A stretch of 64,000 bases of DNA. Source: Amoebophrya sp. A120. Its lineage: Eukaryota; Protista; Dinoflagellata. Below are positions 44,101 to 64,000 of this stretch, piece after piece. Numbering within the stretch: the stretch's first letter is position 1; every line of letters begins with the position of its first letter. The stretch spans positions 6,594,153-6,658,152 of the forward strand of contig CAJINV010000005.1 of assembly GCA_905178155.1 (NCBI GenBank), written 5' to 3'. The notes below the pieces were generated by a model. That model was given only the letters and a program-made list of their open reading frames with translations. It did no database searches and was not told where the DNA came from. Position numbers and translations under genes: made by a program.

Positions 44101-46648
44101 AATTTTTGAAAAGTGGAGCGGTGACGTATCATATGTAAAAACACCCCCACACCACAGTCAAGATGGGAAGTCTGCAACACAAATCCCCAAGTTTTGGGAG
44201 TTCTGCATGACAAATTTGGCCACATGGTGTAATCCTGTTTGGCTAGTTCAGCAGCATCACAGACCTAGCGCATCATGCCGATTGGAGCATGACAAATCTC
44301 GCAACACGACTAAAAAATGCCTCTCTCGGGGCTCCGCATGAGAAGCATTTTTACCATGCAGGTTTGCATGACAACTCTGGGGTCGTGGGGGCGTTTTTGC
44401 ATAGGATATGACGAGGGCGCTGCGAGCAAGGGCGTTACGTACGCGGAGATTGTGATGCACCAAAAGAGTTTTCACGTGTTCGCGGCGCACTTGCAGGCGT
44501 GGGAGAGCGCCAACGCGGTGAAGGCGAGGGAGTCGCAGATTTTAGAAATTCACGACTTCATCCAGGCGCAGGACATTCCGGAAACGGAGCCGGTCTTCAT
44601 CGTGGGGATATGCAAAAAGATACAACTTCTGCGCAAAAGTTGACTTTGTCATCATGCTAGAAGAGATCAGGGCAAATTTCTACGGCAATTTCAAAATTAT
44701 TGTTTTTGTCATGCGTTCGCGTTTAGGTTCACTTCGAGAGCAGCAACTTTTGCCATGCATACAGGGATCTGAACATCGACTTTTTTGACCGGAGTGGGGA
44801 ATACGAGTTTTTGATCTCCTCGCTCGACGCCGACAATTATCTGAACAACAGTATTTGGCAGACGTACCAGAAAACTACGCGACCAGGATTTCCGCCGAGT
44901 CGGATGACTCCCATATCACAAGGAAAAATCCCCCCTCCCCATATCAAAACGAAGTTTCTGATGCTGGATATGCGTACACAAATCCGACTTGTCTTGCAGT
45001 AGAGCACTGCGGCCGGATCCGCAGCCTAGGTAGGAGCGTTTTGGTCTAGTTGGCATTGCAAACGGCTACCCTATACCTAGGACCAGCAGCATGCCAAATC
45101 GCTTCCGCAATTGGTTGGATGCCTCTGCTCTTGTCTTCTTGCAAGACAAACCTGATTTGTGGTCACAAATCAGCAATGCAAATTTTCGCAAAGAGAAAGA
45201 TACCTTTTCAATATGGGGAGGGGGGATTTTTCCTCTCAATATCCCAACGCGGCCGCACGTGTGGAGAAAAAAGTGCAGCAGTACTACGCGAAAAGCATGG
45301 TGGCCGCCGGCGGGGAGGAAGTGAAGCAGCTGGAGACGGATCATTTGTTAAAGAACAACGAGTATGGATTGTAAAAATGTCTGGGGCTGGAAAATTGCTA
45401 CATTTGTCTTGCATGTCTGACATGACTCAAGAATCTGTGATGCATGGGCACGAAGCGGTCCTCTTACCTGTCACGCAAGAACGCAGTTTGCCATGCGGAA
45501 CACGCAACACATAGGAGCCCAAAAATTTGTCATGCTTGGCTTCGTATTGCAGTGGGCCTCTCATTCACCTCTAGCATTACAAGTTTCCAGACCCAGACAT
45601 ATTTGCAATGCATAACGAGGAAGAGAATTCCGACGGCATGATCAACAGCAACGACGAGGAAGAAGCGGAAGAGATCATTACCACCAAACCGGCGACCGAA
45701 ATGGGCATGGACGCCTTGAGTTCCGTGAAAATTTTAACCAAGACAAGCCCAGCGAAAAACAAGAATTTGAAAACCACGGTGGGCGGACCTTCGGGCGGCA
45801 TGCCGAGCCAGGGCGAGGGAGAGGACGAGGAAAATTTATTGAACGCGGATTTTGCAACTGATGCAACCACCGGTCGTAGTTCAAAAAAGGAGAAAAAGAA
45901 GAAATCTTCAGCGAAAAAATCAGAGGGTGATAATTCTCACCCCGTGGTCTCCTCTTCTTCCGGTTTGTTGAACGACAAAACGTCGGGAAATAAACAAAAT
46001 ATGAACCAACGTGCGAAGGAAAACGAGGTTTTTTCTTCCCCGTTGTTCCACGACCGGTTCGTGGAAGTGGGAAATCTTGCGGAAAACAAGAGTCCTGTTT
46101 CTGGATCAACTTCCAGCAGTACTAGAACCACCTCCAAGCAGCAGAATAGTTGTACTAAACCACATCTGCTGCCGCACGACTGGGCCTTTTCCGTCGATCC
46201 GGCGCTGAATCAGTGGATGCAGCTGGGCTCCATCAGTGCCGATGACAAGGCCCAGTGCTTGGACCACATTCTCGTGTCCCGACGACATCTCCAGCCCAAA
46301 CTGGTGAGCAGTAGAGATCATCAGGATCCCGCGGTAGTACCGAGCGGCGCCCAAGCAGCTGTAAACACCGTAAAGGTACTCCGGCTGCGGGCGCGAGAGG
46401 ACGAAGCCTTCCCGCACGATGCTGCAACAGGAGCAAACACGACCACCTCGGGAGGCGATGGAAACAGTGGGAGGAGTAAAAATGCGGTCGCGCCGGAGAT
46501 CATGAGCAGAGACGAAAACAACTCTACGAATAATTCATTGTCGCCAAGCAAGGGATCAAGGGCGGCGCGGAGGAAAGACGGCATTGAAGTAATGGAAATG
46601 CGGGATTTGTCGGACCACTTTCCTATCATGGGAACTTTTCGCTTTTGA
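38131..46648 (+). CDS. DEP-domain + neutral sphingomyelinase-like EEP-superfamily phosphodiesterase
   Basis: DEP-like NTVTGEQISQWLLKLGFCHSYEDCVVAIKILLKDEFL...FYR. EEP motifs LLVYNIW, DVLVFCEAF, NSGVKIYSK, KGVTYAEI, HVFAAHLQA, PVFIVGDLNID (after splicing), LDHILV and LSDHFPI. Twelve introners. Confidence 0.8.
38274..38541. mobile_element. Introner family A
   Basis: TIR; TSD GAGCT. Confidence 0.85.
39238..39517. mobile_element. Introner family C
   Basis: TIR; TSD TCAAG. Confidence 0.92.
39554..39860. mobile_element. Introner family G
   Basis: TIR; TSD CCGCT/CCGCG; similar to 3734-4040. Confidence 0.88.
40807..41058. mobile_element. Introner family A
   Basis: TIR; TSD CCGCG. Confidence 0.9.
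41955..42233. mobile_element. Introner family C (left end TACC)
   Basis: TIR; TSD AGTAG. Confidence 0.88.
42709..42917. mobile_element. Introner family B
   Basis: TIR; TSD CTTTT. Confidence 0.88.
42962..43173. mobile_element. Introner family B-like
   Basis: Imperfect TIR; TSD GCGGA/GTGGA. Confidence 0.82.
43257..44070. mobile_element. Introner family C with nested 516-bp insertion
   Basis: TIR TATCCTATG.../...CATAGGATA; internal 18-bp duplication 43278-43295 / 43812-43829. Confidence 0.85.
44127..44408. mobile_element. Introner family C
   Basis: TIR; TSD TGACG. Confidence 0.88.
44609..44761. mobile_element. Degenerate introner splitting the GDLN motif
   Basis: TATGCA...TGCATA; +5 removal restores VGDLNID and can be read as a GA-AG intron. 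Confidence 0.75.
44914..45241. mobile_element. Introner family E
   Basis: TIR; TSD TCCCA. Confidence 0.9.
45363..45614. mobile_element. Introner family A
   Basis: TIR; TSD ACGAG. Confidence 0.88.
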
Positions 46649-47581
46649 TTTGAAATGATTTTTTTTGGCCCGCGTGGCAACAGTTTCCAATTGTCATGTC
46701 GTGATGTCTTGACCTTGAATCAGTTTCGTTTCTTGAAAAACCAATGCGCGACTTGTTCTACTTCTTTCAGCAGTTGTTGTGTATAATGTACAGAAAGAAC
46801 GAGGCAGCAGGGTTACTTTCTTTGTGTGCATCTTCGGGTTGTAGACGACTTCGAATGCACGGAGTTGTAATGCTACTTCTGTATGATTTTATTTTCGCCG
46901 CCATTTTTCCGGTAACCAAACCTATACCATACTGCAACTTGGACAATGAAAATGAATCGCTATGTTTTGAACTTTCGTACAAAAAGGCAAATTTGGATGC
47001 GCTGTATTTTGTATGGCAAAGGCGAGGCGAGAAGGAGAAAATCATGAAGCAAAATCCCAGCGACTACTTACAGCAGCACTCCTTGTTAGTACCACGGCGT
47101 CGGTCGTTGTCGTTCTGTATTGAGCATCCGCATCTTTACCCTTGTCGTGGACTATGAGTCTTGTCTTGCCCCGACGAGGCCCTCGAGAGTGAGCTGCTAC
47201 ACTCGCACCCCTCAATTTCACAGACCACTACGCCCCTGAGCAGACGGGGTGTCTACTGCAAAAAAGTTCCTTATACGAGTGCAAAGAAATAATCGAAAAA
47301 AAAGGTCGTTTCGTCTTTATGTGAAATTATCGAAAGAGGACGAGAGAAGTTGTGAGTAGAGCTGCAAAGAAATGGTCGTCGCTGCGCTGCAGCATCAAGC
47401 GGGAGAGTTGAAAGTAATCCACATACAAGCCACTTGCTTGATGTTGTACAAGATCTTTAGCAAAATAAAAGGAGAGCACGAGTAGGAGTACACCTGCTCA
47501 ACGCTTCATATTGAACGTTGAAAGGTGGTTTTTCACAACGCCTACTTTTCTTGGAGTGTTAGCTAGAACTAACCCAACATC

Positions 47582-49629
47582 ATGCCTAGTTCCTCGAGTA
47601 CGTCTAACGCGGTCCCCGCGACCCCCGCGGTAGACAAGCGGAAGCGCAAGACAACCTCCCACGACGACACGATCACCTCCGGTGCTGGTGCAGCCACGAC
47701 GGGTAGTAAGAAACAGAAACAGCAGCAGAGCACCAGCAACGCAGGGACAACTGGGACATCTTCTGCAACCACGCAGGGGAACAACAGAGAAAACAAGCAG
47801 CAGTCTAAAGCCACAACCTCTGCTGGTGGTGCGGCCGTGGCGGGAACTACACACGGGCACAAGAACAGTAATAAGCAGGCGCAGATGCACCAGCAGCAGC
47901 AGCAGAACATGGATAATTTTCTGAACAACGACATCAACCTGCAGCACGAGCTGGCCACCGTCTCCGCGCCCGATCCCATCGCCTTGTTGCCCCAGTTGGC
48001 AGACGAGTTCCAGCGGTCGAACGGGAATGCGGGCAAACAGGGCGGCACGGTGAAGTTTACCAACGCGGACATCAAGGAACTCCGGACCAGCGGGTTCACC
48101 ACCATTGACTCGCTTCACTACCCACCCATGCGGAAGTTGCTCGCGATCCGGGGCATTTCCGAACAGAAAGCGGAGTTGCTGTGCAAGATCGGCCGCCAGT
48201 GCGCCAACTCGAGTTCCTCTTCTCGGCTGGAGTTTCAGTCGGCGCAGGACCACCTGGTCCAGGTGCGGCAGCAGTTTGTGAAGAAGATTTCGACCGGCTC
48301 GAGCAAGCTGGACGCGCTGTTGCAGGGCGGCATTGAGACCTCGTCGATCACGGAGATCTTCGGCGAGTTTCGGTCGGGCAAGACCCAGCTGGTGCACACC
48401 TTGTGCGTGATGGCCCAATTCCCCGTCGACCAGGGGGGCTGCGAGGGAAAAGTCTGCTTCATCGATACCGAGGGCACCTTCCGTCCGGAGCGGCTGCAGC
48501 AGGTGGCCGAACGGTTCGAGGTCGACAAGAACGACGTGCTGGATAACGTGGTGGTTTGCCGGGCGCACAACACGGAGCACCAAACGCAGTTGCTGACGGA
48601 GGCCGCGATTCTGATGGCCGAGCAGAAGTTCGGCCTGTTGGTGGTCGACTCCGTGACGAACCTCTACCGGACTGAGTACTCCGGGCGCGGTGAACTGGCG
48701 GACCGGCAGCAGCACCTGGGCCGCTTTCTGCGGTACATCCAGCGGTTGGCGGACGAATTTGGCATCGCGGTGGTCTTGACAAACCAGGTATAAATGTGAT
48801 GACTTGTTGAAGCGCTGTTTGCATTGTTTCTCATGGGAGGAAGCAGGAGATCAGATCTCTTGCTAGACCTCTGTTTTGTGATGCACAAACGAACCGTGTG
48901 CTGGCAGCGACGGACTGAGATCTTTGTCATGGATGCTTAGACACAATTGCAAGCATTAGCATTGACTAAGACGCGATCGTGAGATGAACAACCACTAAAA
49001 AATCAGGTCTGTGCGAAAGTCGACGGCACGGCAGCTTACGGTCCGAGTCACTGCCCGATCGGAGGGCACTATCCCACGAGAAAACTGTTTCCCTGTAACG
49101 ATCATTTTGCACTTTCACTTTCAGCATGATCACAATAAGTTTGTGACACACGACAAAGAAAAAAGTCCGCCATGCGTCCTTTCCAAGGGACGAAATCAAC
49201 GCGGATAAGGATGATCCCGTGGTGTCGTGTATCAATGTCTACTAGCAAGACAAATACGACTTGTGTAGGGCGTAATACTTTGTCCATCACAACAAGTCTG
49301 CACAGGGAAGTAGCAGTTTTTCCTCGTGATAGCCACGTGTTGGCGCATGCGTGTCAGACCCGGCTGTCCTTGCGGAAGGGGAAAGCGGAGGGACGGTTAT
49401 GCGAGTACACAACTACTTTTCCTCTCTCTCATTTTTGTCATGCGGAAGCTACATTTCTGTAGATTGTTTCTGTTGCTGTCCATGTCATGACACTTAAGTA
49501 CAAATGAAAGGCAGGGGAAGTAGAAGTTGTGCAGTCTCATAAAGGTTCTGCAAAATCTACGACTCACCCCACCTGCCCGAAGGGGAAGCGCCGTTTGTGA
49601 TCAGTGAGGGGGGAGTGGCGGACGACTAA
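47582..49629 (+). CDS. RAD51: DNA recombinase RAD51 with long low-complexity N-terminal extension
   Basis: Walker A GEFRSGKTQ, FIDTEGTFRPER, LYRTEYSGRGELADRQQHLGRFLR..LADEFGIAVVLTNQV. After splicing 48788-49006, 49070-49331 and 49398-49541: PIGGHVLAHACQTRLSLRKG...CKIYDSPHLPEGEA...GVADD*. Confidence 0.93.
48788..49006 (+). other. Canonical GT-AG intron in RAD51
   Basis: AACCAG|GTATAA...AATCAG|GTC restores TNQVCAKVDG. Confidence 0.88.
49070..49331. mobile_element. Introner in RAD51 (TATCCCACGAGAAAACTG)
   Basis: TIR; TSD GGCAC/GCCAC; restores PIGGHVLAHA. Confidence 0.9.
49398..49541. mobile_element. Introner family D-like in RAD51
   Basis: TIR; TSD ACGGT/AAGGT; restores GRFCKIYDSP. Confidence 0.88.
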
Positions 49630-51090
49630 GTCAACAGCATGTTGGGGGATTTGTTTACAGAGATACGACTTCAAAGTTCTGTATCTGTGGAGCTTTTCTA
49701 TGGTTTTTGACTCGTTGAGTTAAGTGTGCCAGGTGCAGATCGTGATATACCTTCCTAGAAAATCAACATTTTTATCTCGTGTTTCGTTTTTCTTTATTTT
49801 ATTGCCAAGAACTCACTTGTTCATCAGCGAAAAAGAAAGTCGTTCGTTATGACAGCCAAGAAAATGAAATGCACCAGAAACGAGAAATCATTGTCGTTTA
49901 TTGTCATCCTACTTTTCAGTCTTGTTGAGCTTGATTTTGTCTTCGTCCTGGATCTACTTTTCACTCTTGTACGATCTTGATAGAGCTAGATTTTGGTACG
50001 CGGAAAATCAAATGGCTTCATCGCACCACCTGAATTTGCAATGCTGATTGCCTATCAGTATACACAGAGTTTCTATAAAAATATTCTTAGATGTTATTGT
50101 TTGACTCGCCTCGGATTCAGTAGGATTTCGTCTTCTTCTTGGCGTTGCCACTTCACAATTCAAACACTCACTGTGTAGACGAGCTTATTTCAATTTCCTT
50201 CTACTAGTAGGTGTAGGATGGGGAAAGACTATTGCAATCATGTGTTGTGGCACAACCCTGAAGACTTGAGCTGCACTTGCCTTTGTCGTGAGGAGCTTGT
50301 CTAGATTTATTTTCACGACACGGGGCAGAGGACAATTTGAATTTTCCGGAGCTCCTGTGTCATCTCTGATGCAAACTCGGAACCAGAACTTCCTCCGCTT
50401 CGTGTGATAGACTTGAGATTTTTGTCTACAAAAATGATTTTCAAGCTTTTCGAAGTTTCTTGAACTTTTGCAACTTATGCCCGATTGTCTTTGACGATCA
50501 ACCACAGTAGGGATCCGCGTCCCCGCAGCAAAGACCGCCGGGCCAGCATGCAAAGCTGCGATAGTCAGTTGATACATTAATTGTTCGGAAAATTAGTCTT
50601 TTCGAACATGGTTTTATTTGTGCGCGGAAAGCTGCACCCTGTAATGGCGTTTTCTATTTTGTGGTCAGAGTTGCACGCGACATGGCGCGGACAGAGTCGA
50701 GGTCCACTTTTCACTCGATTCATCCGTCGAGAGCCATGTTTGTACTGTGACGAGCGATGGTCGTGATGGCGAGAGAGAGCGAGAGAGGGCGTAGTATCGA
50801 AGTAGGATTTCACAAGATGTCCGCGAAAAATAAGGGCGTGGCTGCGACCAAGATATTGATTCGTCTCACAGCCTCGTTCGCATGCCGCTAGAAGTCGTGA
50901 TATTGTTGCTTCACGGATGAGCAAAAAGCAAGGTCTATAAGCTTCGTGAAGCCGAAAAACTACAAAGCAAATCTGCGGCATCAAGTGCAGCGTGATGGAT
51001 ACTTATACCAGTTTGCGTGATGGTTGAAAGTTTGAAAGTAAGCCGAGATAGTGAAGTTACAAAATCTTGAAGTGAAACAACCACCAACAA

Positions 51091-54000
51091 ATGCAGCCTC
51101 CGCAGCAGAACCGCAACCGGCCCGGCACGGCGGTGGGACCGCGCAGTGCCACGCTGGTTCGCGCGGGGTTGCAGGACCAGCGACCGAGGTCCGCGTCCGG
51201 GACCAAACTACCGCAGCGCCCCCGATCCGCCGCCGCCGCGGCCGTGCTACAAAATCGCGTGAATCAGCTCGAGCAGATGCTGGACCTGCAGCGCAACGAG
51301 TACAAGGAGCGGGTGGAGCGGTGGGACCAACTGCTGAATCGCAAGTTCACCATGCCGGTTCTGGGCGCATCCGGTTCCGGTGGTCACGCAAGTGTGAAGC
51401 TCAAATCCCTCGAAGAATACGTGGCCGACGAAGAAATGAAAAATTCGACCGAAGCAGGTGGCAGGAATAATAGAGCAGCGGGCACTAGCAACGGTAAGAA
51501 CAAGGAAAACAGAAATACAGCCAACGTGGGTAATCACAACAATATCGCTATTGCTCGAAACAATAAGTTGAATCGCAACAAGTCGGCCGGGCGAAAGGGA
51601 AACAAGAGGAGTAAGCAAGGCGGACTGGTAGATGGGGGCGGAGCTGCAGCATCTTCCCGAAACAAACAATCGCACAACCAGCAGCAATATCTTGGGCAAA
51701 AGTGAGTATCGTACTCGTGTATGCAATTCTTGCGACCGTGAACAAGGTGAACCTTCTTGACAGATTTGACTTCTCGAAACATTTTAGCATGCTATTTGCT
51801 TACGCTAGTCCGATACTTTTCCTTTTGCAATGCATAAGGAAAACACGACGACCCATAATAGGATGCGTGTGGAAGGGAACAACGAGCTAAACTCCAACAC
51901 AACCTCCGTCGAGGACTCTACCAGCACCGAAGAAAACGCCGTCGCTACCATCGACGCGCTGAAGCCGCCGCCCGATATCGTGCAGCACCACTCGCACTTA
52001 TTGCTTGACGTGGAGGGTGTATCCAAGAAAAAAACTGTATTAGTGTAAGTCTTTTGGGAAAACAGCATCACAAGTTTGTCTGCAATGACAAGAAACGCTT
52101 GCTATGCGCAGATAGGAAGGCAAAACACATAGGAAGCGAGCCGATCATGCATGTCGAGCATGACAAGTGTAAACTCTTTTGCATTTTCTGCATAGGAGAT
52201 TTACACTCGCACTGTTTTTCTCTTGCATAGGGTGACGAGGAGGATTCCGCTGGAGTAGAGCAGCGGCAGATGGAGGACGGAGATCGGAATAACCACCACC
52301 CGGGGCGGCCCTACGGAACAAACACCGCGCCGTTGGGGTCCTTCACCTTCTCCAGAGACGGGCGCGACACGGATGTCGAAAACGGTGGTCTTCACACTGC
52401 TGGTGGCAACGACAACATGCAGATCGAGCAGAACAACTACGATGTTGAACCGGAATTCGGGATGGGCCCAGCGGCAGGAACTACTTCCAGTAGAAATGCT
52501 GCTACAGCAATATTACAGGGAACAGCAGCAATAGGAGGACAGCAACAGAACAATATTTATCCTGCAGCGACGTCTCAACACCTCTACAACCTCCCCTCGA
52601 GCGCCGGAAATACAACAAATAAAACGCCTTCCTCGCCAAGCTCCTACCGTGGTCAGCAGCACTTAGGAGGTGCAGGCACTGTTCCGAAATCGCAGTGCAC
52701 CACCGCCCGGTTTTCAAACGGCGCAGGGGCTATCAAATGCAAATATGTTTGGGTCTGGAAGGATGCGAACTTGTGATGCGTGTCGCGGATCAAACAAAAA
52801 TCTGTGTTGCATGACTTGCAAAAGGTCCCCATTTCTGGCCATGCTGAGTGGGCATTTCTCATGCAGAATAGGCATCACTAAGGGGCTGCAGAACCTGTGA
52901 TGCTAGGTCCTGCATTACAGACTTGGCGGACCTTGGAAAAACTGCATGACAAATCTCGGAATCTTCCAGACCCACACATGTCTGCATTCCATAGACGCGC
53001 AGGACGAGCAATTCAGCTACCGCACCCCGACGAGCGGGGCAGGAGGGGGATTTGGAGGAGCAGTAGTGGTTCCAGCTCTTATATCCAAGAAAAAAACGTT
53101 GTTAGTGTAAATTTGTGATGCGCAACATGCAAAGTAATTGCGTCTGTCATGCTTGGCATGCATCGTAGGGTCCATTAAAGGGCGTTTTCACGTACTATCT
53201 GCGCATGACAGGTTTTTGCTGTCATGCCAGACAAATTTGCAATGCTGTTCCTCCAAGAAAGTTACACCTACAATGTTTTTTTCTTGGATATCTTACAACT
53301 ACACTTGGGACAAATGTTAAAACCGCCACCAGCAGTAGCAGCAGCGCTGCGGCAAAACCGCGTGGGCAGGACGACCAGCAGGAGGCGCAACACCAGCCGG
53401 AACCGAGTCGGACGAGCAGCAGTCAGTTTCTCTTCAACACGTACGAGCCGCCTGATGAGAACAGTGCGACTTCGGATCTGGACGACGACGTGGATCCTGA
53501 CGATAATCCTGGTCAACGAAGACCTACTAGTGGAAGAAACGCTAAAGGCGGCAGGAAGAAGAAGCAGTCCTCGTCTGCGCAGCTGGCGAACAAATACCAA
53601 GCCACGGGCATCGATTTTGACAAGAAAAACAATCCCGCACAACTCGCGGCGACGCAGCGGTCCGCGGCGCGAACATTGTCCCCTAGCCCCGACACCCGTC
53701 GAGGAAGGGCCGGCCGGCCGTCCTCGAGTTCCCCTAGGGGGCCCGCGGGTGCTGGTGGTAGTAGTTCCGCGCAAAAAATGAATGGCGCCAGGGGGAGCAG
53801 TGCGAACAGGAACTCAAACTCGCCGAGTGGAGGTCCTCGTGGAGGGACGAACAAAACGGACAGGACGAACGACGACCCTGGGCCGATGCTGCGGTCGCCA
53901 CCGGGCATGCGAGACCACCGGTTGGGCAGTAATTCGCCGCCGCGGAGTATCGCAAGAAAAAAGTGTTACGGTTACACAAATAGTCCATGCAGGCCAAGCA

Positions 54001-57000
54001 AGACAGACCAGCTCTGTCATGCCGGATATGCATAGGAGCTTCGTTTCATGGGTGCTTTATTCCCTTAGGATTTCTGCATTGCAAGTTGCATTCTCTCTCA
54101 TGCAGAGAAATTTGTGTTGCTGAATCGACAACAAATGTGTAAGTGTAACAGTTTTTTCCTGTGATACGGAGTCACCGGGCCTTGCACCAAGAGCGCATGG
54201 AGGACCTATGCATTGCAAAGATGTCTCGGTCTGGAAGCATGGAGCTTGTAATGCTAGTCGTGCATTCCTGTAAAATCTGTATTGCATGACTATACAAAGA
54301 AGACGCCCTCTTTAGTCATACAAAGCACAGTGTCTCATGCGGACTGAGCATGAGAGAGCGTTCTGCAAACTTGTCATGCTTGGCTGCATTGGCAAATATT
54401 TCAGTCATCCACAGTTCAGCATCACAAGTTTCCAGAGCCAGACATATTTGCATTTGATAGGACCACTTTGCGCACAATTACAATCCCGGGTTCTACGGCT
54501 CCAACAACCACGGCCACGACGTGATGCACATGAATTTCGCGTCTACCCTATCCTGAGCGAAAACGTCCCCATTGTCATGCAGATTTGCAATTACAGGAAA
54601 ATTTGTAATGCGCACTCTTATGGAAGACATTTCCAATCGTGTTTATTTGGAATTTGTGATGCTGTAAACAGGATAAGAAAAAGGCTTTCTGATGCAGCTG
54701 TCCTTGCTAAACTGCACTACAATACACAGAGAAACTTGTCATGCGTGACTCGCAAAAGTTCTGAATTTGTGTTGCTAAGTTCCCAACTTGCCTATGGGGT
54801 GGGGACGGTTTTTCAAAGGATACACCCGACCGCAGTCGGCCGCGCCCGCGAAAAATCGGTGGACGGTGCACGCGCACAAGGAACAGATGCTATGCGTTGC
54901 AAACATGTCCTTGTCTGGATCTGGCAGATTGCAAGTTGTCATGCTGAATCTACACCATGCAATCGCAAAATAAAAATCTGTGTTGCATGAGTACCAAGCA
55001 AAAGGTGTTCGCTTTTGACCAAGTTGAGAGAGGGTTTCTCATGCAGGAAAGGCATGATAAAGACCTCAAAGAGTCTGTCATGCTGGGTTCCCCATTCCAG
55101 ACCTCACGGGTCATGGAAAACCTGCATGACAAGTTTTGCAACCTTCCAGACCCTGAAGTGTTTGCATTTGATAAAAGCAGGCCCTGAGCAATCGACCGCG
55201 GACCGCTCCCTACGGGTCGTCGGCGCACCAGGTGGCCAACCAGCGGGACAAGGACGAGTCCTACAATGCGCTCAGCAACCTGCAACAGATGTTCACCAAA
55301 GTGCACAAGGAAAATCAGGTCCTGATCCAGCAAAAGCTAAACGTGGAAACGGAATTGCGCGAGTATTTGTCGACGAAGGAAGGCCACATGGCCAAGCATA
55401 TGGATTGCAAATATGTCTGGGTCTGGAAGATTGCGAAATTTGTCATGCTAGTCTGGCATGACTCTGAACTCTGTGTTGCATGGCCGCGAAGAGCTCCTCC
55501 CCCCTGTCATGCAAAAACGCAGTTTGTCATGCGGAGTACGCAACTCAGAACCATGAACAAAACTTGTCATGCTTGGCAGCACATCATAGTGAGTTCACGA
55601 CTCCCTTTCTTGCATCACAAGTTTCCAGATCCAGACATTTTTGCATTTGATAAAGGAAATATTCGAACAACGGGATTTGGTGAAGTCCTTGCGCACTCGA
55701 CTTTACAACATGGAGCAGGATAACGTGCGCGCGACGGCGAAAGCTAAGCGGTGTGAAATATCAAATGCAAAAATGTCTGGGTCTGGTTCTGGAAGAACGC
55801 AACTTGTGATGCTGCATTTGGATGTCTAAAAAATTTGTGTTGCATGAGCAGCAAAAGGATTCTAATTTTTGCTACGCGGAGAGGGCATTTGTCATGCGGA
55901 ATAGGCATCAAGAATCCCTCAGAAAACCTGTGATGCTAGGGCATGCATCACAGATCGATCATGGCTCATGCAAACCGTGCATGACAAGTCTCAGAAAAAT
56001 CTTCCAGACCCAGACATTTTTGCATTTGATACGAAAGAAGGGCATACGAAGAAGAAATGTTCCTGAAGCAAGCGTATTTTTAGATTCTTCTTTTTGTTGT
56101 CATGCGGGATGACAAGTATAAATGCAAAAATGCATCACAAGAAAATTGCTTACTGGTGTCATAATTTTGCGCATCAGAAATCCACATCTTATATCAGCAT
56201 GAAGGAGATTATCGAAGCGTCAGGATTGAAATCGTCAAAGTTGAAATAACTTGCAATGCATAAAATCGATACCAGTTCGAAGCCCAATTTCCAAGCGGCG
56301 CATGACAAATTTCCCGAGCACCGGAATCCAATTTGTCATGCTGTTTGGGCACAGACGACTGCTTTTGTCATGCTACTTTAGCAGCTCTATTTCAAACCCT
56401 AAACAGGCTGACAGTCGGCCTCACTTGCCATCCCGGCAAGACAGGCACTTCATGCCTTGCATTTCATGCATGACAAATCATTTCAACTTTGTCGATTTCA
56501 CACCTGACGCTTCCATAGAGATCGAGACTCTGAAGCAAGTAACGGTGGAACTGCAGCGCATGAATTTGGAGCTACATTTACGAAAAGTTGCGTTGCGGGC
56601 GAGCCAGGACATAAACTGGTTGTCATGCGAATTGTCATCATGCTGGATCTGGAAATAAAGCGCCAGCCGCTTTTTTTCTCTCGCGCGCGTGAGCAAGAGA
56701 GCACCAGCAACCGGCCGCTATTGCATAGACATGACAGCAAGTTTGCTATCTATGTGTTGAAAATAATAAATTTGATGTTCTGCCTCTCGTCCGCTTTCCT
56801 CCCTTCCATACACGGAATCCCCCCAAATGAAGCTGATTGAGCAAAAGCTGTACAAGTTTCAGAAGGGCCTCACCAAACGCACGAAGGAGCTGAACGACCA
56901 GAACGATGCCCAGGATGAGGCGGTGCAGGAGATTTGGGTCCGGGTAGAGAAGGTGAACACCAAGGTGGACGGGCTCTACGCAATGACGGAAGCGGTATTT

Positions 57001-58249
57001 GGTTTGTGTTGTAGATGGGAATTGCAAAAGAAAGGCGCTGTATCATGCACTAAGATCGAAGAAAATTTCATTGAAAAACAAAGATCTGAATCAGTCTACC
57101 AAGAAGAGATACTTAATTACTTGCCCGAGTCTCGACCTACTTCTCCGTGAAACAAAATCCAGCTGCAGCAAGACCGGAATGAGGCGGGCGTGTTGCTGAA
57201 GGTCGGGCGGGAGCGGATCAAAGAGTGCAAGCAGACGTTGCAGAAACTGGCCCAAGACTTCCATACGAACTGCAACAGTATCGTACTCGTAGTATCTATT
57301 GCAACACAAATTAGCTCAGCACGACAAATGGGATTTCTCATGCTGATCGAGCTTGAAAAAGAAATTTGTCTTGCATGACTGCGATCAGTACGACGAGTGC
57401 GATACTTTTGCACAGGATGTTCCAACAATTGAAGCAAAACGCGGACGACTCGGAGCGAAAATACCAGCGAATCTTGAAGCGTCAAGACGAGGAAACCAAC
57501 AAGATCAACGCGCTGCAGCGAACGTACAGGGAGATCCTGGAGGAGGTGGTGGGCAATAACAAGTGGTACAAGCGAACGAATAAGGATTTGGAAAACGAAA
57601 ATGCGCAGTTGAAAAAGGAAAACACGGAACTGCTAGAGTCGCTGATGGCCTACTTGATGCTGAACCAGCAGTCTTCGCTCCTGAAGGGCAAGGCGAAGAA
57701 AGCGCTAGATCCGTTAACCGTCACCGCGGAAAAGAAGCGGGTGCCACCCCCGTTGGACAACCGGAAAGCGATATGCATTTTGCAAATACTTGTGTCTGAG
57801 GCTGGATAATTTGTGATGCGAAAGTTGAAGGACAGGAAGATCTGTGATGCATGGCTAGGAGTGGCGGCGCCTTTTGTGTCGTGGTGGAAGAGAGTTTGTC
57901 ATGCAAAGCCCGGTACTAGAAATCGCTTCGCAATGCTGGGATCCGAAAAATTTGTGTTGCGCTAATGCCGTACAAAGCATCGCCCTTTCATGCCACACTC
58001 AGCATGACAGGCGGCGCACTTTCAAGTATCCAGGCCCAGATCGTCGAAGATATTTGCATTGGATAAGCGAACGAGAAAGACGATGACGGCAACGCGCACA
58101 AGAGCAGCATCTCCACGCAGCCCTACCCCATCCACGAGCCGATTGACTTGCCGCCGCCGCCGGAGGGGGCGTTGCTCAGTCCACGGGTCCTGGTGGAGGG
58201 GAAAAACGTGCCGATTTTGCTTGGGGAAATTGTGGATGTGAACTGTTAG
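51091..58249 (+). CDS. Large coiled-coil/low-complexity hypothetical protein with at least 12 introners
   Basis: Coiled-coil-like exons (LQNRVNQLEQMLDLQRNEYKERVERW, LQQMFTKVHKENQVLIQQKL, NKDLENENAQLKKEN). The last exon ends GEIVDVNC* after element removal. Some introns at 56-57 kb not resolved. Confidence 0.65.
52020..52229. mobile_element. Introner family B
   Basis: TIR; TSD GGGTG. Confidence 0.87.
52731..52993. mobile_element. Introner family A
   Basis: TIR; TSD GGGGC/GACGC. Confidence 0.85.
53082..53290. mobile_element. Introner family B
   Basis: TIR; TSD TCTTA. Confidence 0.9.
53948..54166. mobile_element. Introner family B
   Basis: TIR; TSD CGGAG; similar to 42709 and 31276. Confidence 0.9.
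54207..54459. mobile_element. Introner family A
   Basis: TIR; TSD GGACC. Confidence 0.88.
54549..54822. mobile_element. Introner family C
   Basis: TIR; TSD TACCC/CACCC; inverted relative to 9189. Confidence 0.86.
54891..55173. mobile_element. Introner family A
   Basis: TIR; decayed TSD GATGC/AAAGC. Confidence 0.82.
55399..55652. mobile_element. Introner family A
   Basis: TIR; TSD AAGCA/AAGGA. Confidence 0.88.
55759..56031. mobile_element. Introner family A
   Basis: TIR; TSD TGAAA/CGAAA. Confidence 0.9.
56210..56517. mobile_element. Introner family G, inverted relative to 3734/39554
   Basis: TIR; TSD GAGAT. Confidence 0.88.
57264..57419. mobile_element. Degenerate introner (ends TACG...GATG)
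   Basis: Sub-terminal IR AGTATCGTACTCGT/ACGAGTGCGATACT; TSD TTCCA; restores DFQQLKQ. Confidence 0.78.
57772..58065. mobile_element. Introner family A-like
   Basis: Imperfect TIR; TSD AGCGA. Confidence 0.83.
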
Positions 58250-59620
58250 ACCTAGAAATGTATAGAATTTTATCGAGCTGATATTTGCCGTAGTACTTAC
58301 TTCAGAAGGTTTGATGTACCAGGTCGGTGGATCATACCTCAATTTCAACGTATCTGTATCAACGATTAGAACAATGACCAATAATTTAACAACAACTTAA
58401 AGAATTAGTGAAGACAGACTCCGAATCCAAGACATCTTGTCGTGAAGAATGGTAAAAAATGGACGACGGCAAGTTGAAAAACTACGTCTTGAAAAGTTGT
58501 AACTTGAAATGTACTCTCTGTATCACCTGCTGTAGTGGACAGCTTGCCTTCTGCTCCTGCGGAGTTGCAATATTAAAGAAAGAATCTTCCAGGGAAAATG
58601 TTATGGCTTGTACCCACCAATGAACGAATGTATCAACCGAATCAATATGTGATGAAATTCTTCTATCACAGTCTCAAGTGCTGAAAATAAATCATCAACT
58701 CCTCCTGTTGCAAACGGAGTGCCGGAACTTCTTCTTTTTCTATGTACAAAAAGAAAACGTCGAAACTTATCTTCGAAATAAACGCCTCCCGCGATATCTT
58801 CGATGTCGTAATTGTCTTTCAGAACTTCTTATTTCCACTTTATTGCTACCACTGTTCCTGTTTCACTGTAAGTAGAGCAGTTTCACTGAGATGAAAGTAG
58901 ACAATGCCTCGCTCCTGGCCTGACACGAATTCGAATGCTGGTGAAGGTAGAGAGCTACAGGTGAAAGCCAGTAACAAACTGTACCTACGCACTAGAAGTG
59001 CGACAAAATCAGGGAAAAAAATTACGAGGGCTTGTGTTGCTGATTTTGGTTGATTGAGCAGACTTACACAGCAGCGGCGGCGTAGTGTTCTACTACAGAA
59101 TGTCGTGTTTCAGATGTAATTCTCTCTGTTCTTGATCGTAGATAGCTTAGAAGTCCGGGGAAAACGTCGCAAAAAAACCGCCATCGCATTGATAGTCACC
59201 AGTTACTTCCGTGGACACAAACCTACCGTAAGTACAAGGGTTCGGCCTCGAAGAACTGTATCGAGTCTTAGCACACATCCAACCGAGGTCGAGAGGGGTC
59301 GGGTGCGGGGTTTTAGCTTGAAATTTCGTGCCTAGTAGTTCCTCTGCGATATCGTCCATGATATTCGTCGACAAGATCCAAATCGATTTGTACGGGCGTG
59401 AGCGAAATTCTTTCATGAGCTGTCGTGGTAGTGTCAAAAGTACTTTTCTTCAATTCCAATTGTGGTTGCTTATGGGCACTTTCATTCGATCAGATTCATA
59501 TGATTGCTGTGCTTCATCATCCGAAGTAGAATTGGGCGAGATTTTGAATATCGTGTTCGAAATCGAGACACGACAAGTTTGAGTTTCACAAAACTTAAAG
59601 TTTCGTCTGAGAAACAAAAT

Positions 59621-61539
59621 ATGCGAATCGCAAAGCAATCTTCCCGTCTCACACTCCTCCGCGAGCTGTTTCTGTTGCAGCAAGCACACGAGCAGGGCGG
59701 CAGACCAGTCGTACACGGTTACCAGGAAAACAAAAAACGACTTCGGGGAACCGCGAGAGAAGCGCGCGAGACGGAGGAAAACGCTTTCTCCGTTGTTGCG
59801 GAAGGCAATAAAAAAGGCGGTGGCAAAAAAGAGAAGAACAAGGAGGGACGAGGTAGTAAAAGAGACAAAAAGAAGGATCCAGATGAAAATCAAGAAGGCG
59901 GAGCAGGGGATGCAATTGCGGACGCGGTGGACACGCAAGATGAGAACAAGAAGACGAGGAGGAAGAAGGCCAGCAAAGGCAAGCCAACAGAGGCGGCGAC
60001 CACAGATGCAGAAATAGGGCCCGACGGCGGGGTATCAACTGTAAAAATGTCGGGGTCTGGAAGAGTATTAAACTTGTCATGCAGGTTTTCCATGACGCGT
60101 GAGGTCTGCGTCTGGAATGCGGGACCTAGCGTGACAGAGTCTGTGAGGTCTCTGCTATGCCTATTCTGCATGAGAAACTCCCTCCGAACTTGGTCGAAAG
60201 TGAACAGCATTTGGCCCTCATGCAACACAGATTTTCGCACTATCCGGATTTAGCATGACAACTTGCAATCTTCCAGACCCAGACATTTTTGCAATCCATA
60301 CGGGGCCGCAGCGGAAGTAGACAATGGAGCCTCAGCAGATGCCGATCAAGAAGCGGATAGCGATGAAAGCAGCAATATCCTGAGTAAAAACGTACCCACA
60401 CCAGAGTCAGGATGGGGATTTTGCAACACAAACCTAGGAGTTTTGTGAGTCACGCATGACAAGTTGCACTCTGCAGTGTAGTGCAGGTTAGCAAGTGCAG
60501 CCGCGTCCCAGATTCATCTGCTCATCCTGTTCACAGCATCACAAATTCCAAAACAGGATTGGAAATGGCTCTCATGGGGATGCGCATTACAAGTCTTCCT
60601 GTCTTTGCAAATCTGCATTACAACTCTGGCGTGGGTACGTTTTTACTCAGGATATAGGCGGCCGGAGGTAGGGAGAACGAGAAGAAGCAGCGCCGCAAAG
60701 CCACTACCGATAGTGGTGACGAGAACGCGAATATCAAATGCAAAACAAGTGTCTAGGAGGTCTGGAAGAATGCATGTTTGTCACGCTTCTCTGGCATGAC
60801 TCTTAAATCTGTCATGCACGTTACCCAAGAGCCGCCTTTTTCTGTCATGCAGAAACGCAGTTTGTCATGCAGAATAGGCAACACCTAGAAGCTCAAAAAC
60901 TTGTCATGCTGGGCCAGCACTTGTGGCCTTCTCATGATACGCCACCCAGCATCAGAAATTTCCAGACATCCAGGGATATTTGCATTTGATAGCGAACGAC
61001 GATCAAACGGAACGAGAAGGAGCTGCACCAGCAGCGGACGAAAACTCCTTCGCAGCCAAGTGGCAGAACGTGCGGAAAAGAGCGAGTGAGGGTATGACCT
61101 GCTCAAACGTTAGAATCTCAAACGTTACAATAGAATCTGAGACTTGTCTTGCATATGTGTATAAGCATGACAGACTCGCAGACCGTTCCACTTTCTGCAG
61201 TACAAATTTCGGCATATTGTAGTGCGGTTCGGGACTCCGGAACTTGTCGCGCGCAGTCCTATGAGACTCGGCTAGATCATGCACTTCTTGCATCACAGAT
61301 TTCGACATCGGGGATGAAGAAATACTCGCGATGTTTTCGCGGTTCTGACCCGATGCCGCTCCAGCGCCTGCGGAGGCTTGCTTCCCCAGTGATAATGGAC
61401 AATGGCAATGTCGGTGCGGTTGTTTTAGCATCACAGATTTCGACATTCTATTGCAGCGTTTGAGATTGTAACGTTTGAGCAGGTCATAGGGGGCTGGCAG
61501 TCCTTCAAGGACAGCGCGTTGTCCAGGCTCGGCAGCCTG
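59621..61539 (+). CDS. 5' part of a hypothetical Lys/Glu-rich protein with hydrophobic N-terminus; continuation lies past the retroelement
   Basis: MRIAKQSSRLTLLRELFLLQQ... continues across four introners to EGWQSFKDSALSRLGSL, then meets a fifth element end. Confidence 0.6.
60033..60300. mobile_element. Introner family A
   Basis: TIR; TSD CGGGG. Confidence 0.9.
60376..60654. mobile_element. Introner family C
   Basis: Near-perfect TIR; flanks AGCAA/TAGGC do not match, but +5 removal restores frame. Confidence 0.88.
60732..60991. mobile_element. Introner family A
   Basis: TIR; TSD GCGAA. Confidence 0.88.
61093..61488. mobile_element. Introner family F (TATGACCTGCTCAAACGTTA)
   Basis: ~32-bp TIR; TSD GAGGG/GGGGG; internal repeat GCATCACAGATTTCGACAT twice. 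Confidence 0.9.
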
Positions 61540-61563
61540 TATCCATTGCAAATATATCTGGGC
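61540..61563. mobile_element. Left TIR of a family-A introner interrupted by the LINE
   Basis: TATCCATTGCAAATATATCTGGG directly followed by RT coding sequence. Confidence 0.72.
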
Positions 61564-64000
61564 TCACCCGCGAAATTAACAAACGAGTAAGAGACGACCG
61601 GGCAGCATGGGTGCGCGAAAAAATACAAACCTTGAAGCAAGCTGACTGCAGCGGGAATACGAAGCTGATTTTTGAAACAGTGCGGCAGCTTGCGGGAAAA
61701 GGGCGAAAGCGGCCGCAGGAGCTGCCGGGACCAGCAAAATTGTGGACCGACTTCTGGGGGGACATCTTCGGCAAGGAAAGGCCGGAGCCTCCAGCAGAAA
61801 CGAAGCAGACAAAAACCTGGGCACGGTGTGAAGCAGAAATTCAGAAAAATCGAGAAGGCCCAACATGGTGCGAGGGCCTCGGCGAAATCCCCACAGAGGG
61901 AGAGGTGGTCGCAGCGCTTCGGGAGCTGAAAGCGGGCAAAGCATTCCACGGGCCCTGCCCGGCGGAGTTTGCAAGGGAATGCCCAACAGTTCAAGCAGTG
62001 CTGGTGTCTCTCGTGCGTCGAATTTTTCGGGGAGACGAAATCCCCGAAGAGTGGGGCGAGGCAGTAGTAGCCATGCTCCACAAGGACGGCGTGAAACACG
62101 ATCCGAAAAACTGGAGACCGATCGCCCTGATTTCTTTGGGCGAAAAATTGCTGGGCCTCGTCATCCTGAGAAGAGTAGAAGAAGGGGCCAACAGAGAAAT
62201 GGACCCCCGGCAGAAAGGGTGCCGGCGCGGACTGTCGACCCGACACGCAGTGTTCGAGCTGCTGAGGGACATCGAAAAAGCCAACAAAGAAGGGCGCCGC
62301 GCCCTGTATGCCTTCATCGACTTCGCGAAGGCGTTCGACAGCCTTTCATGGCCCGCCATGGAGGCCATCCTGCGACTTCAAGGAATGCCAGAAAATATCT
62401 GTCGCGTGCTCCGCGACATGTACCGGCGCAACGCAAAGTGGAGCATCCGGCTGGGGAAAGACCGGAACACCGAACAACGAAAACAAAAGAGCGGCATAAG
62501 GCAAGGCAGCGCGCTTTCGCCGTTGTTGTTCGCACTTTGCGTCGATTGGGCCCTAAAACAGTTCGCAAAAACGATGGAGGAGGAAATGAAGTGGACACAA
62601 GACCAAGCCCTTGCCCAGGCCCTGGCCTGGCTTGGGTATGTAGACGACCTGGCCGTCAAGGCCTCCAGTGTCCCCGACATTGAGTTTGCGATGCGCGAGC
62701 TCTCCAGCGCGTGTCGCTTCATAGGCCTCGACTTGAACATCCGAAAAACGAAAGTTTTGGCGGTTAACCAAGAAGCAGAACAGAAGCAGAGCCCCACCGC
62801 CATGATGGAGAAGTGCATCATGGACGGGGAAGAGGGGTGGACGATCGACTACTGCGGGATTGACTGGGATAAAGAGTGGCAGACAGCAGCAAAATCCATC
62901 CCGCTTGCCGGGCTCGGCGACCTCGCGCCAACTCATCTGGTTGTCTGGGACAACCCGGCGATCGGTGTGCAGATCATCGCGTCCAAGCCGAGTGGGTGGG
63001 CAACCGCTCATTGCGGCACTAGCATCCGGCTTACGAGATTAGGCCTGCGGAAATTTGTCCTGGAAGAGAAAAATAGTTTTACTTGCGAGAAGTGCGGCGA
63101 TGTCCTCGCGGACGAGACCGCGCTTCATTTTCACAAAACGACCGGGTTTTGCCGGCCGAACAAGTCGGTGAAAGAATTGCGCACATTGCGGGTCGCGCGA
63201 ATGGTGGAGCAAAAGAAGAAACGAAAAGCCCGGCCGGACGCCGCGGCCGGGCTAAAGGCGGTCAAGCTCCATGGCAAACCGGTGGAGTGCGTGGGGTCGT
63301 TCAAGTACCTCGGCACGGAGGTAGGGTGTGACGGCTCCACCGATGCCGAGACGCATCGCAGATGCGGTCTAGCTCTCGGTGTCGTCCGCCAGGTCTCTCC
63401 CGTCTGGAGGGACAGTAGCGTCCCAACCCACCTGAAAGCCGACTTGTTCCGTTCTCTCTCCCTCAGCGTTGCTTTGTACAACGCTGAGACATGGACTATT
63501 TCCCCAGCAGCAGCTACTTCCTTGCGACAGTTCCAGGACAGTGCCCTGCGGTACGTCCTGGGGGGACACTACAGAAACGCAGAGAAAAGTAGGGAGGAGC
63601 TGTGCGCCGAGCTAGGCCTGCAGGCGATCGAGGACGAAGTAAGATGCAAGAGAATCGGATGGATCGCGCACACATGCAGGGGGATGCAAATGAGGGGTCG
63701 ATGCGCAGAATCGAGCAAGAGATAAACCGCAAAACAGCATGGGGAAAACAAGCAGGAGACGATTTGGATTTGTTCAACATACCCTTCAGCGAACTGAAAA
63801 ACACAAAGCCGACCGGGGAAGCAATACGGGCGACGCTGGCGCAAAGAAGAAAAATACAGCCGGTGCAGCGCAAGAGGGGCGTGGAAGCAGGCAGACCGAA
63901 GTCGAGAAAGCGCACAGAGATGGAAGAAGAGAGAAGAAAACGACTAGAGCAACAAAGACAGGAGACTGAGGCAGCAAATAAAGTTTTACTATTGCGGATC
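61564..64000 (+). mobile_element. 5'-truncated non-LTR retrotransposon (LINE, RTE-like), runs off the window end
   Basis: RT motifs NWRPIAL, QKGCRRGLST, FIDFAKAFDSL, GIRQGSALSPLLF, YVDD (~62637), FKYLG and WIAH. No endonuclease domain upstream; starts abruptly inside an introner TIR. Confidence 0.9.
61611..63725 (+). CDS. Reverse transcriptase ORF of the LINE (N-truncated, probable frameshift near 63680)
   Basis: 704-aa ORF with non-LTR RT motifs. A shifted frame stays open from ~63683 to the window end. Confidence 0.85.
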   Translation: MREKIQTLKQADCSGNTKLIFETVRQLAGKGRKRPQELPGPAKLWTDFWGDIFGKERPEPPAETKQTKTWARCEAEIQKNREGPTWCEGLGEIPTEGEVVAALRELKAGKAFHGPCPAEFARECPTVQAVLVSLVRRIFRGDEIPEEWGEAVVAMLHKDGVKHDPKNWRPIALISLGEKLLGLVILRRVEEGANREMDPRQKGCRRGLSTRHAVFELLRDIEKANKEGRRALYAFIDFAKAFDSLSWPAMEAILRLQGMPENICRVLRDMYRRNAKWSIRLGKDRNTEQRKQKSGIRQGSALSPLLFALCVDWALKQFAKTMEEEMKWTQDQALAQALAWLGYVDDLAVKASSVPDIEFAMRELSSACRFIGLDLNIRKTKVLAVNQEAEQKQSPTAMMEKCIMDGEEGWTIDYCGIDWDKEWQTAAKSIPLAGLGDLAPTHLVVWDNPAIGVQIIASKPSGWATAHCGTSIRLTRLGLRKFVLEEKNSFTCEKCGDVLADETALHFHKTTGFCRPNKSVKELRTLRVARMVEQKKKRKARPDAAAGLKAVKLHGKPVECVGSFKYLGTEVGCDGSTDAETHRRCGLALGVVRQVSPVWRDSSVPTHLKADLFRSLSLSVALYNAETWTISPAAATSLRQFQDSALRYVLGGHYRNAEKSREELCAELGLQAIEDEVRCKRIGWIAHTCRGMQMRGRCAESSKR

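Follow-up and report, generated by a model that had tools for sequence, protein, structure and literature searches.

How are the borders of an intron found when the short direct repeat that usually frames such introns is missing, and how does such a site arise? The question is raised by an introner element at positions 60376-60654 of a 64,000-nucleotide (nt) stretch of the genome of Amoebophrya sp. A120 (assembly GCA_905178155.1, contig CAJINV010000005.1), which is referred to below as the window and whose numbering is used throughout. The introner elements of A120 have been described as carrying inverted repeats of the form TAT, seven nucleotides and a run of A, together with direct repeats of 3-5 nt (Farhat et al. 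2021, PMC7789003; what is said here of this and the other cited papers refers to their accessible parts). According to the same source, the commonest direct repeat has four bases and is offset from the 3' inverted repeat, about 65% of the A120 introns are non-canonical, the U1 small nuclear RNA was not found, no cognate transposase was reported, and the cut positions were left undefined because the target site duplications (TSDs) blur the junction.

The element at 60376 is a young copy of this introner family without a TSD. It is a non-autonomous element of 279 nt with perfect terminal inverted repeats (TIRs) of 24 nt at 60376-60399 and 60631-60654 (24/24 matches); no strand is assigned to it or to the other elements discussed here. 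The initial annotation had remarked on its near-identity to a sibling at 9189-9467, and the two indeed differ at 9 of 279 positions. Further copies were collected by scanning metagenome contigs for the exact 24-nt TIR, a procedure biased to young copies, which gave 71 related loci; the family counts 53 full copies there and 8 in the window. The 60376 copy is 97.5% identical to those in loci L021 and L022 and differs from the majority line of 25 close copies at five positions, two of them private. In the DNA run X1 the window base at 60556 accounts for about 27 of a summed depth of 94,838, the single-copy level being about 30. From these comparisons the copy is young, and no identical twin of it was seen. 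Its flanks on the + strand, AGCAA (60371-60375) and TAGGC (60655-60659), disagree at 5/5 positions, as was also seen initially; the sibling at 9189-9467 has the perfect TSD GGAAT/GGAAT. No alternative duplication of 3-15 nt, lying up to 6 nt from either end of the element, accounts for the flanks. At the mismatch rate of the whole window, five out of five would occur with a probability of 9e-6, or about 5e-4 when all 58 sites are considered, and at a rate of 2% the probability is 3e-9; the site is a rare one-off, a discrete outlier within its family.

In other respects the element resembles its relatives. The inverted repeat fits the A120 introner pattern (TAT, seven variable bases, then at least three A), the element belongs to a repeated family, its ends in the mRNA are non-canonical, and it is predicted to fold as a long hairpin joining the ends (-129 kcal/mol, z -6.9). 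The direct repeat of 3-5 nt at the borders is missing, and the element is therefore classed as a variant of the A120 introner rather than as a plain member. Likewise, it has the TIRs and its family the constant-length TSD of miniature inverted-repeat transposable elements (MITEs); a TSD at this copy is lacking.

The element interrupts a + strand gene (59621-61538, five exons in the window) which encodes a low-complexity protein with no Pfam match and is annotated in A120 as P0001; its exon 1 matches an Amoebophrya sp. A120 protein at 100%. Spliced contigs from all four of the runs X3-X6, which come from one sample and whose RNA nature is a guess (their contigs lack the elements precisely), join 60374 directly to 60659. 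The 284 nt skipped equal 279 + 5, and the junction has zero ambiguous bases. The intron actually removed is thus 60375-60658 (+ strand), consisting of an A, the element and TAGG, a register that we denote -1/+4. Bases 1-4 of the left flank are exonic and its last base is intron position +1; of the right flank TAGG is intronic and only the C exonic. The ends are AT..GG and not the GT...AG of U2-type introns. The mRNA encodes the peptide SSTAGG and not SSKAGG, in agreement with the public protein P0001, which at 60376 is reproduced by the -1 register only. An intron ending in AG would result from the in-frame register -2/+3; the contigs do not show it, and this AG, one base from the acceptor used, is bypassed. 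As it stands, the right flank can never have been exon because its TAG is a stop in the frame of the gene; that TAG acts as a stop here is indicated by frames of 1200-1500 codons free of it.

The initial annotation had proposed that removal of the element plus five nucleotides keeps the frame open, and that cleavage is measured from the TIR rather than guided by repeat homology. The length of the removed segment stands; the junction itself, now mapped exactly on transcript contigs, lies one base to the left of where it had been placed (-1/+4, not 0/+5). As a unique junction is used where no repeat exists, at the same distances as at sites with a perfect TSD, the cut needs no TSD and is not guided by repeat homology. 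Openness of the frame alone cannot prove +5, since several other removal lengths at 60376 are also free of stops (+2, +8 and +11, as well as +0, +3 and +6 in a second open frame). In the raw RNA runs X9 and X10, with 13 and 4 reads on 44001-64000, no junction was found.

The same register agrees with what can be read at other sites of the window. A scan blind to TSDs gave 60 TIR pairs, of which 10 were dropped (six sub-pairs inside accepted elements, two cross-pairs and two threshold pairs in coding frames) and to which 8 were added, leaving 58 curated elements. All 10 dropped pairs had 3-5 flank mismatches; the curation is not TSD-blind, and it may have reduced the mismatch rate. Every one of the 58 lies in a + strand frame, the longest having 1533 codons, which the -1/+4 removal leaves open, and +5 yields the longest downstream frame at 51 of them. 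In the host gene, the neighbouring introners at 60033-60300 (perfect TSD CGGGG; here a contig piece starts, and the end at 60301 is loose), 60732-60991 (perfect TSD GCGAA; skip of 265 = 260 + 5) and 61093-61488 (TSD GAGGG/GGGGG; skip of 401 = 396 + 5, registers 0 to -3 fitting) are all removed with +5. A second annotated protein, P0002, is identical over 434 amino acids to the -1/+4 translation across ten elements. Within it, site 6768 allows registers 0 to -2, and the old element at 5761-5952 (flanks GCTGA/ACAGC), whose TIRs mismatch at 13 of 20 positions, allows -1 to -4 and excludes 0/+5. From the piece ends, no more than two upstream bases can be intronic at 51688 and at 52731, and no more than three at 49398. 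The only register common to all informative sites is -1; if 60376 is left out, -1 and -2 are both shared. Because the same reads may underlie the annotated proteins, these are not independent evidence for -1.

Lengths of transcript contigs point the same way. Gaps of 174 (543 - 369), 80 and 124 nt close with +5 per element, and a gap of 1234 nt is accounted for by nine elements at +5 together with two GT-AG introns and a residual starting at the TAC at 56579. Among the nine is the old element at 54891-55173 (flanks GATGC/AAAGC), for which +5 thus agrees with the length sum. The residual would be a very old intron at 56579-56810, without TIR or TSD (ACATT/CACGG) and without a sibling found, which keeps TAC...ATA ends and the +5 geometry; its position was solved from the length residual, and the resulting frame is open over 1145 codons. 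The old and probably nested element at 43257-44070 (flanks CAAGC/AATGC) likewise leaves the frame open with +5. In published Table S4 of PMC7789003, all nine predominant A120 motifs begin with N-T and between them show all four first bases, as -1 predicts. We regard the -1/+4 rule as well supported at 60376 and as likely general elsewhere. Two further introns may be mentioned here: 57264-57419 has decayed ends (TAC...ATG), a perfect TSD TTCCA and a removal that still fits +5, and the GT-AG intron 56074-56197 also reads G-TAT...ATA-TCAG, so that the -1/+4 geometry fits and it is possibly an old introner turned canonical.

How the cut may be set is suggested by what the borders do and do not contain. 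Among the 58 elements the cut bases show no preference, G being first at 18/58 (p 0.41) and AG last at 7/58 (p 0.17), and no drift of the intronic TSD bases towards GT/AG was seen. Nor was selection seen for pairing between the two bases that adjoin the TIRs (19/58, against 24/58 for the exonic counterparts). Within + strand genes siblings are found in either orientation, 69 pairs being same-strand and 46 opposite-strand, in line with a symmetric signal in the TIRs. GTAT is the donor sequence of all three GT-AG introns in the window; as the N-TAT[C/G] of the -1 register matches it from position +2, the spliceosome is the likely agent. The same three introns carry an A at -7, where the elements have the first A of ATA. 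Taken together, we think it rather probable that the 60376 intron is spliced by a ruler from its TAT...ATA ends and that its lost TSD reflects a one-off imprecise insertion. The splicing machinery would measure both cuts from these ends and not from the repeat or from GT-AG; a U2/U5/U6 spliceosome no longer reading the +1 G or the final AG would fit, and the first A of ATA, at -7, is a candidate for the branch point, guessed from three introns. The long stem may help removal, but to judge from 5761 and 56579 the terminal motifs may count for more. At a normal site the 5-nt TSD would be cancelled by the -1/+4 cut, making insertion silent in either orientation and in any sequence, which would explain how the elements fill coding genes.

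A general excess of TSD mismatch, of which the 60376 site would be an extreme case, is not supported. The initial annotation had held that TSDs mismatch more than element bodies do, perhaps through error-prone filling, and had named agreement with neutral divergence as the outcome that would speak against it; for the bulk of the sites this agreement is what was found. Both ends are present in 53 of the 71 related loci, leaving 48 unique sites after removal of five same-flank repeats. A perfect TSD is found at 42 of these and a single mismatch at 4; the remaining two are L007, with an 8-nt duplication, and L053, which has the right flank of L003. With these two excluded, 4/230 TSD positions mismatch (1.7%) against a mean nearest-sibling divergence of 4.4%, and the count fits half the pairwise divergence (p 0.43). 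At the other 57 elements of the window, 28/285 positions mismatch; for the 45 with a sibling the figures are 8.0% against a divergence of 16.7%, overstated because siblings were drawn only from the window and the 71 loci, and the three youngest window copies have 0/15. Over 56 sites of the 60376 family, 47 have no mismatch, 6 have one, none has two or four, and three are outliers. Taking all families in the related loci, 60/73 sites have a perfect 5-nt TSD and 3, L054 among them, have at least three mismatches. Between TSD mismatch and TIR mismatch there is a weak positive correlation (rho 0.31, p 0.02), and none is detectable between TSD mismatch and nearest-sibling divergence (rho 0.16, p 0.29). 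Position 4 of the TSD holds 1 of the 28 mismatches (p 0.015, uncorrected for five positions), which is suggestive only. As to the other mismatched flanks reported initially, those at 5761 (3/5), 43257 (2/5) and 54891 (2/5) were seen again and belong to old copies, with the nearest sibling 78-81% identical or none found. The pair at 10212 was apparently mis-paired, as 10506 is the better partner for the end at 10734 (TIR 18/24, ATGTT/ATGTA, one mismatch). A possible weak element at 10212-10438 (flanks GGGTT/CGATT) was excluded from the 58 for its poor TIR match.

Some related loci deserve description in their own right. At the young copy L007:401-680 the duplication measures 8 nt and not 5, and +5 removal would add one codon. 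L019:146-424 and L027:145-424 share insertion site and TSD, with flanks 98% identical (250/255 and 141/144), and have element bodies only 75% alike, each near a different subfamily; either the body was replaced by gene conversion or two insertions hit one site. With a body swapped at a fixed site and the TSD kept, a young body need not mean a recent insertion. L053:125-403 has unrelated flanks, 122 nt of the right one being common to L003, and L054:684-925 also has unrelated flanks and interrupts an SMC-like gene whose reading does not continue; both are probably assembly joins.

For the origin of the 60376 site itself we tentatively prefer imprecise integration, with less than even confidence. 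The target would have been cut with a 2-nt overlap (AA), or 3 nt would have been lost, and one base misfilled (A to T); the net change, a multiple of three, would have allowed the site to survive. L007, with 5 + 3 duplicated bases, is the mirror case. In place of an imprecise insertion, the whole intron (A + element + TAGG) might have been copied from a site with the TSD TAGGA, either because gene conversion extended beyond the TIR or because the excised intron RNA was reverse-spliced, and the host protein would be unchanged. Such carriage from a donor, already raised in the initial annotation, needs no point mutation and covers both the five mismatches and the in-frame TAG; bodies are replaced at fixed sites, as L019/L027 show, and an element encoding a reverse transcriptase lies nearby at 61560-63698. 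We nevertheless hold it to be unlikely. A TAGG flank is present at none of the other 138 of 139 family ends, a comparison of low power with about 0.5 expected by chance; the swap at L019/L027 left the TSD intact and hence was not a whole-intron replacement; the perfect TSD at 42/48 family sites and the two orientations are those of DNA transposition; and two bases of the 60376 copy look private in the DNA run, so that no identical donor is evident. An extended form, in which a spliceosome lacking U1 ignores GT and AG alike and cuts at fixed distances from the transposon ends (N-TAT...ATA-NNNN, with the branch A at -7), and in which young TSD-less copies are excised introns reverse-spliced with donor borders (TSD TAGGA), seems to us very doubtful. 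For the 60376 site taken alone, error-prone filling or donor carriage, as first proposed, is possible.

Flanks from two insertions could also have been brought together by a crossover between near-identical copies, by deletion within the gene or by exchange between loci. Copies are abundant and mosaic (L013, and 41955 in the window, W41955), and hybrid flanks do occur in related loci, L053 with its L003 right flank and L054 breaking a conserved SMC-like reading; these two may be assembly joins. The 60376 copy is not mosaic, as L021 shares both of its non-private minority variants (positions 130 and 255), a partner within the gene would need one more change to give the in-frame TAG, and a motif like EN.KK.RRK..ATTD is common to both halves of the host protein, all of which makes a crossover improbable to our mind. 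Gene conversion might instead have given an old intron, its TSD fully decayed, the fresh body of a young sibling. Old TSD-less introns of the same geometry apparently exist (56579-56810, and the GT-AG intron 56074-56197), and body replacement has a precedent in L019/L027. This origin predicts a continuum of 2-4 mismatches on young bodies, yet family sites with 2 or 4 are absent, and in a fully decayed intron conversion would have no homology to act on; we judge it quite unlikely. That TSDs are generally filled with errors and mismatch more than the bodies, or that 60376 is a case of neutral decay, is highly improbable: the 28/285 mismatches at the other 57 window elements can be cited in its favour, yet the rates given above for young copies and for the window run the other way, as does the probability of 3e-9 for five mismatches out of five. 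Least credible of all is a chimera of two loci joined by the assembly through the repeat. Such joins are likely in L053 and L054, and the X1 DNA contigs do not span the element, but repeat-free spliced contigs join both flanks in 4/4 runs, with four exon pieces on one contig, which excludes misassembly. Misassembly and neutral decay were accordingly rejected as causes of the 60376 flanks. A match to the TIR was looked for in viral contigs and none was found.

Several points weigh against the combination of a ruler with an imprecise insertion. Only one junction is mapped to the base, by contigs of one sample and of guessed RNA status, and contigs lose rare isoforms, so low-level use of other registers may occur. 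The annotated proteins that support -1 may rest on the same reads. The conservation of TAT/ATA is partly circular, the elements having been found by requiring these motifs, and 57264-57419 (TAC...ATG) and 41955 show that changes at the ends are tolerated; in PMC7789003 the splice sites are described as variable relative to the hairpin. At L007 +5 is not proven, both downstream frames being open. The model with a 2-nt overlap rests on one matching base, which has a chance of 1 in 4, and no empty orthologous site was found, orthologue searches giving only the A120 protein, no match at all, or a weak low-complexity match to P0003.

The elements of A120 are already known, and the existing gene models already encode the right junction. 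The 60376 element shares with the published A120 introners (PMC7789003) the organism, P0001 and P0002 being 100% identical to A120 proteins, and the inverted repeat, the repetition and the non-canonical ends; it differs in having no direct repeat where most copies have 5 nt, and in a border that was unknown or variable there and is here mapped to -1/+4. The closest geometry is that of introner-like class 12 (NNAGG) of Polarella glacialis (bioRxiv 10.1101/2020.10.14.339549), which also has a 5-nt TSD and -1/+4 borders, the donor consisting of the last TSD base and the first element base and the acceptor lying at TSD positions 3-4. Class 12 needs G and AG from the TSD, whereas any bases serve in this window (G 18/58, AG 7/58). 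The family is also like MITE-type TIR transposons (PMC7789003, PMC11282704) in its shortness, its TIRs, the 5-nt TSD of the siblings and the two orientations, and unlike them in being removed at the RNA level and, for this copy, in lacking a TSD. Euglenid nonconventional introns and the non-canonical introns of Fritillaria (PMC11282704) have a comparable TIR-derived stem, borders other than GT-AG and TSD-like repeats; their end motifs differ, with a CAG/CTG stem in euglenids and AG-AC/AT in Fritillaria, against N-TAT...ATA-NNNN with free border bases here. In the accessible literature that was searched, a fixed -1/+4 register or a TSD-independent removal in A120 was not found; figures 3 and S19-S23 of PMC7789003, Dataset S2 of PMC12130899 and papers under subscription may bear on this.

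Further features of the window were seen around these introns. Just inside an introner end at 61540 lies a frame like that of a long interspersed nuclear element (LINE) at 61560-63698, stop-free over 713 codons, with a match to RVT_1 (E 3e-26). The contigs of 4/4 runs diverge from the window after 61544 into another exon, which seemingly starts with the same five bases as the TIR, and the annotated P0001 continues into the LINE-like element. As the contigs leave the window at 61544 and P0001 reads on, the public gene model is probably truncated. The long elements at 21342-22057 (716 nt) and 43257-44070 (814 nt) apparently contain nested copies. A gene at 47573-49629, putatively RAD51/DMC1-like from its motifs, has one GT-AG intron and two introners. 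At 4520-5300 an exon segment of roughly 60 codons is tandemly duplicated, both copies are present in P0002, and the positions of the introners differ between them.

Wherever the two copies of a TSD differ, the cut can be located to the base, which makes such sites natural markers; those considered here point to one fixed, sequence-blind register that exactly cancels the 5-nt TSD. Rare young copies without a TSD are a test set for intron transposition, a long-open question (PMC3443670). For the A120 spliceosome the register predicts a free +1 base, a free acceptor and a branch near -7, and by this one simple rule tens of thousands of introns could be re-annotated. Such a fixed register would explain how these elements can land harmlessly anywhere in a gene, in either orientation.
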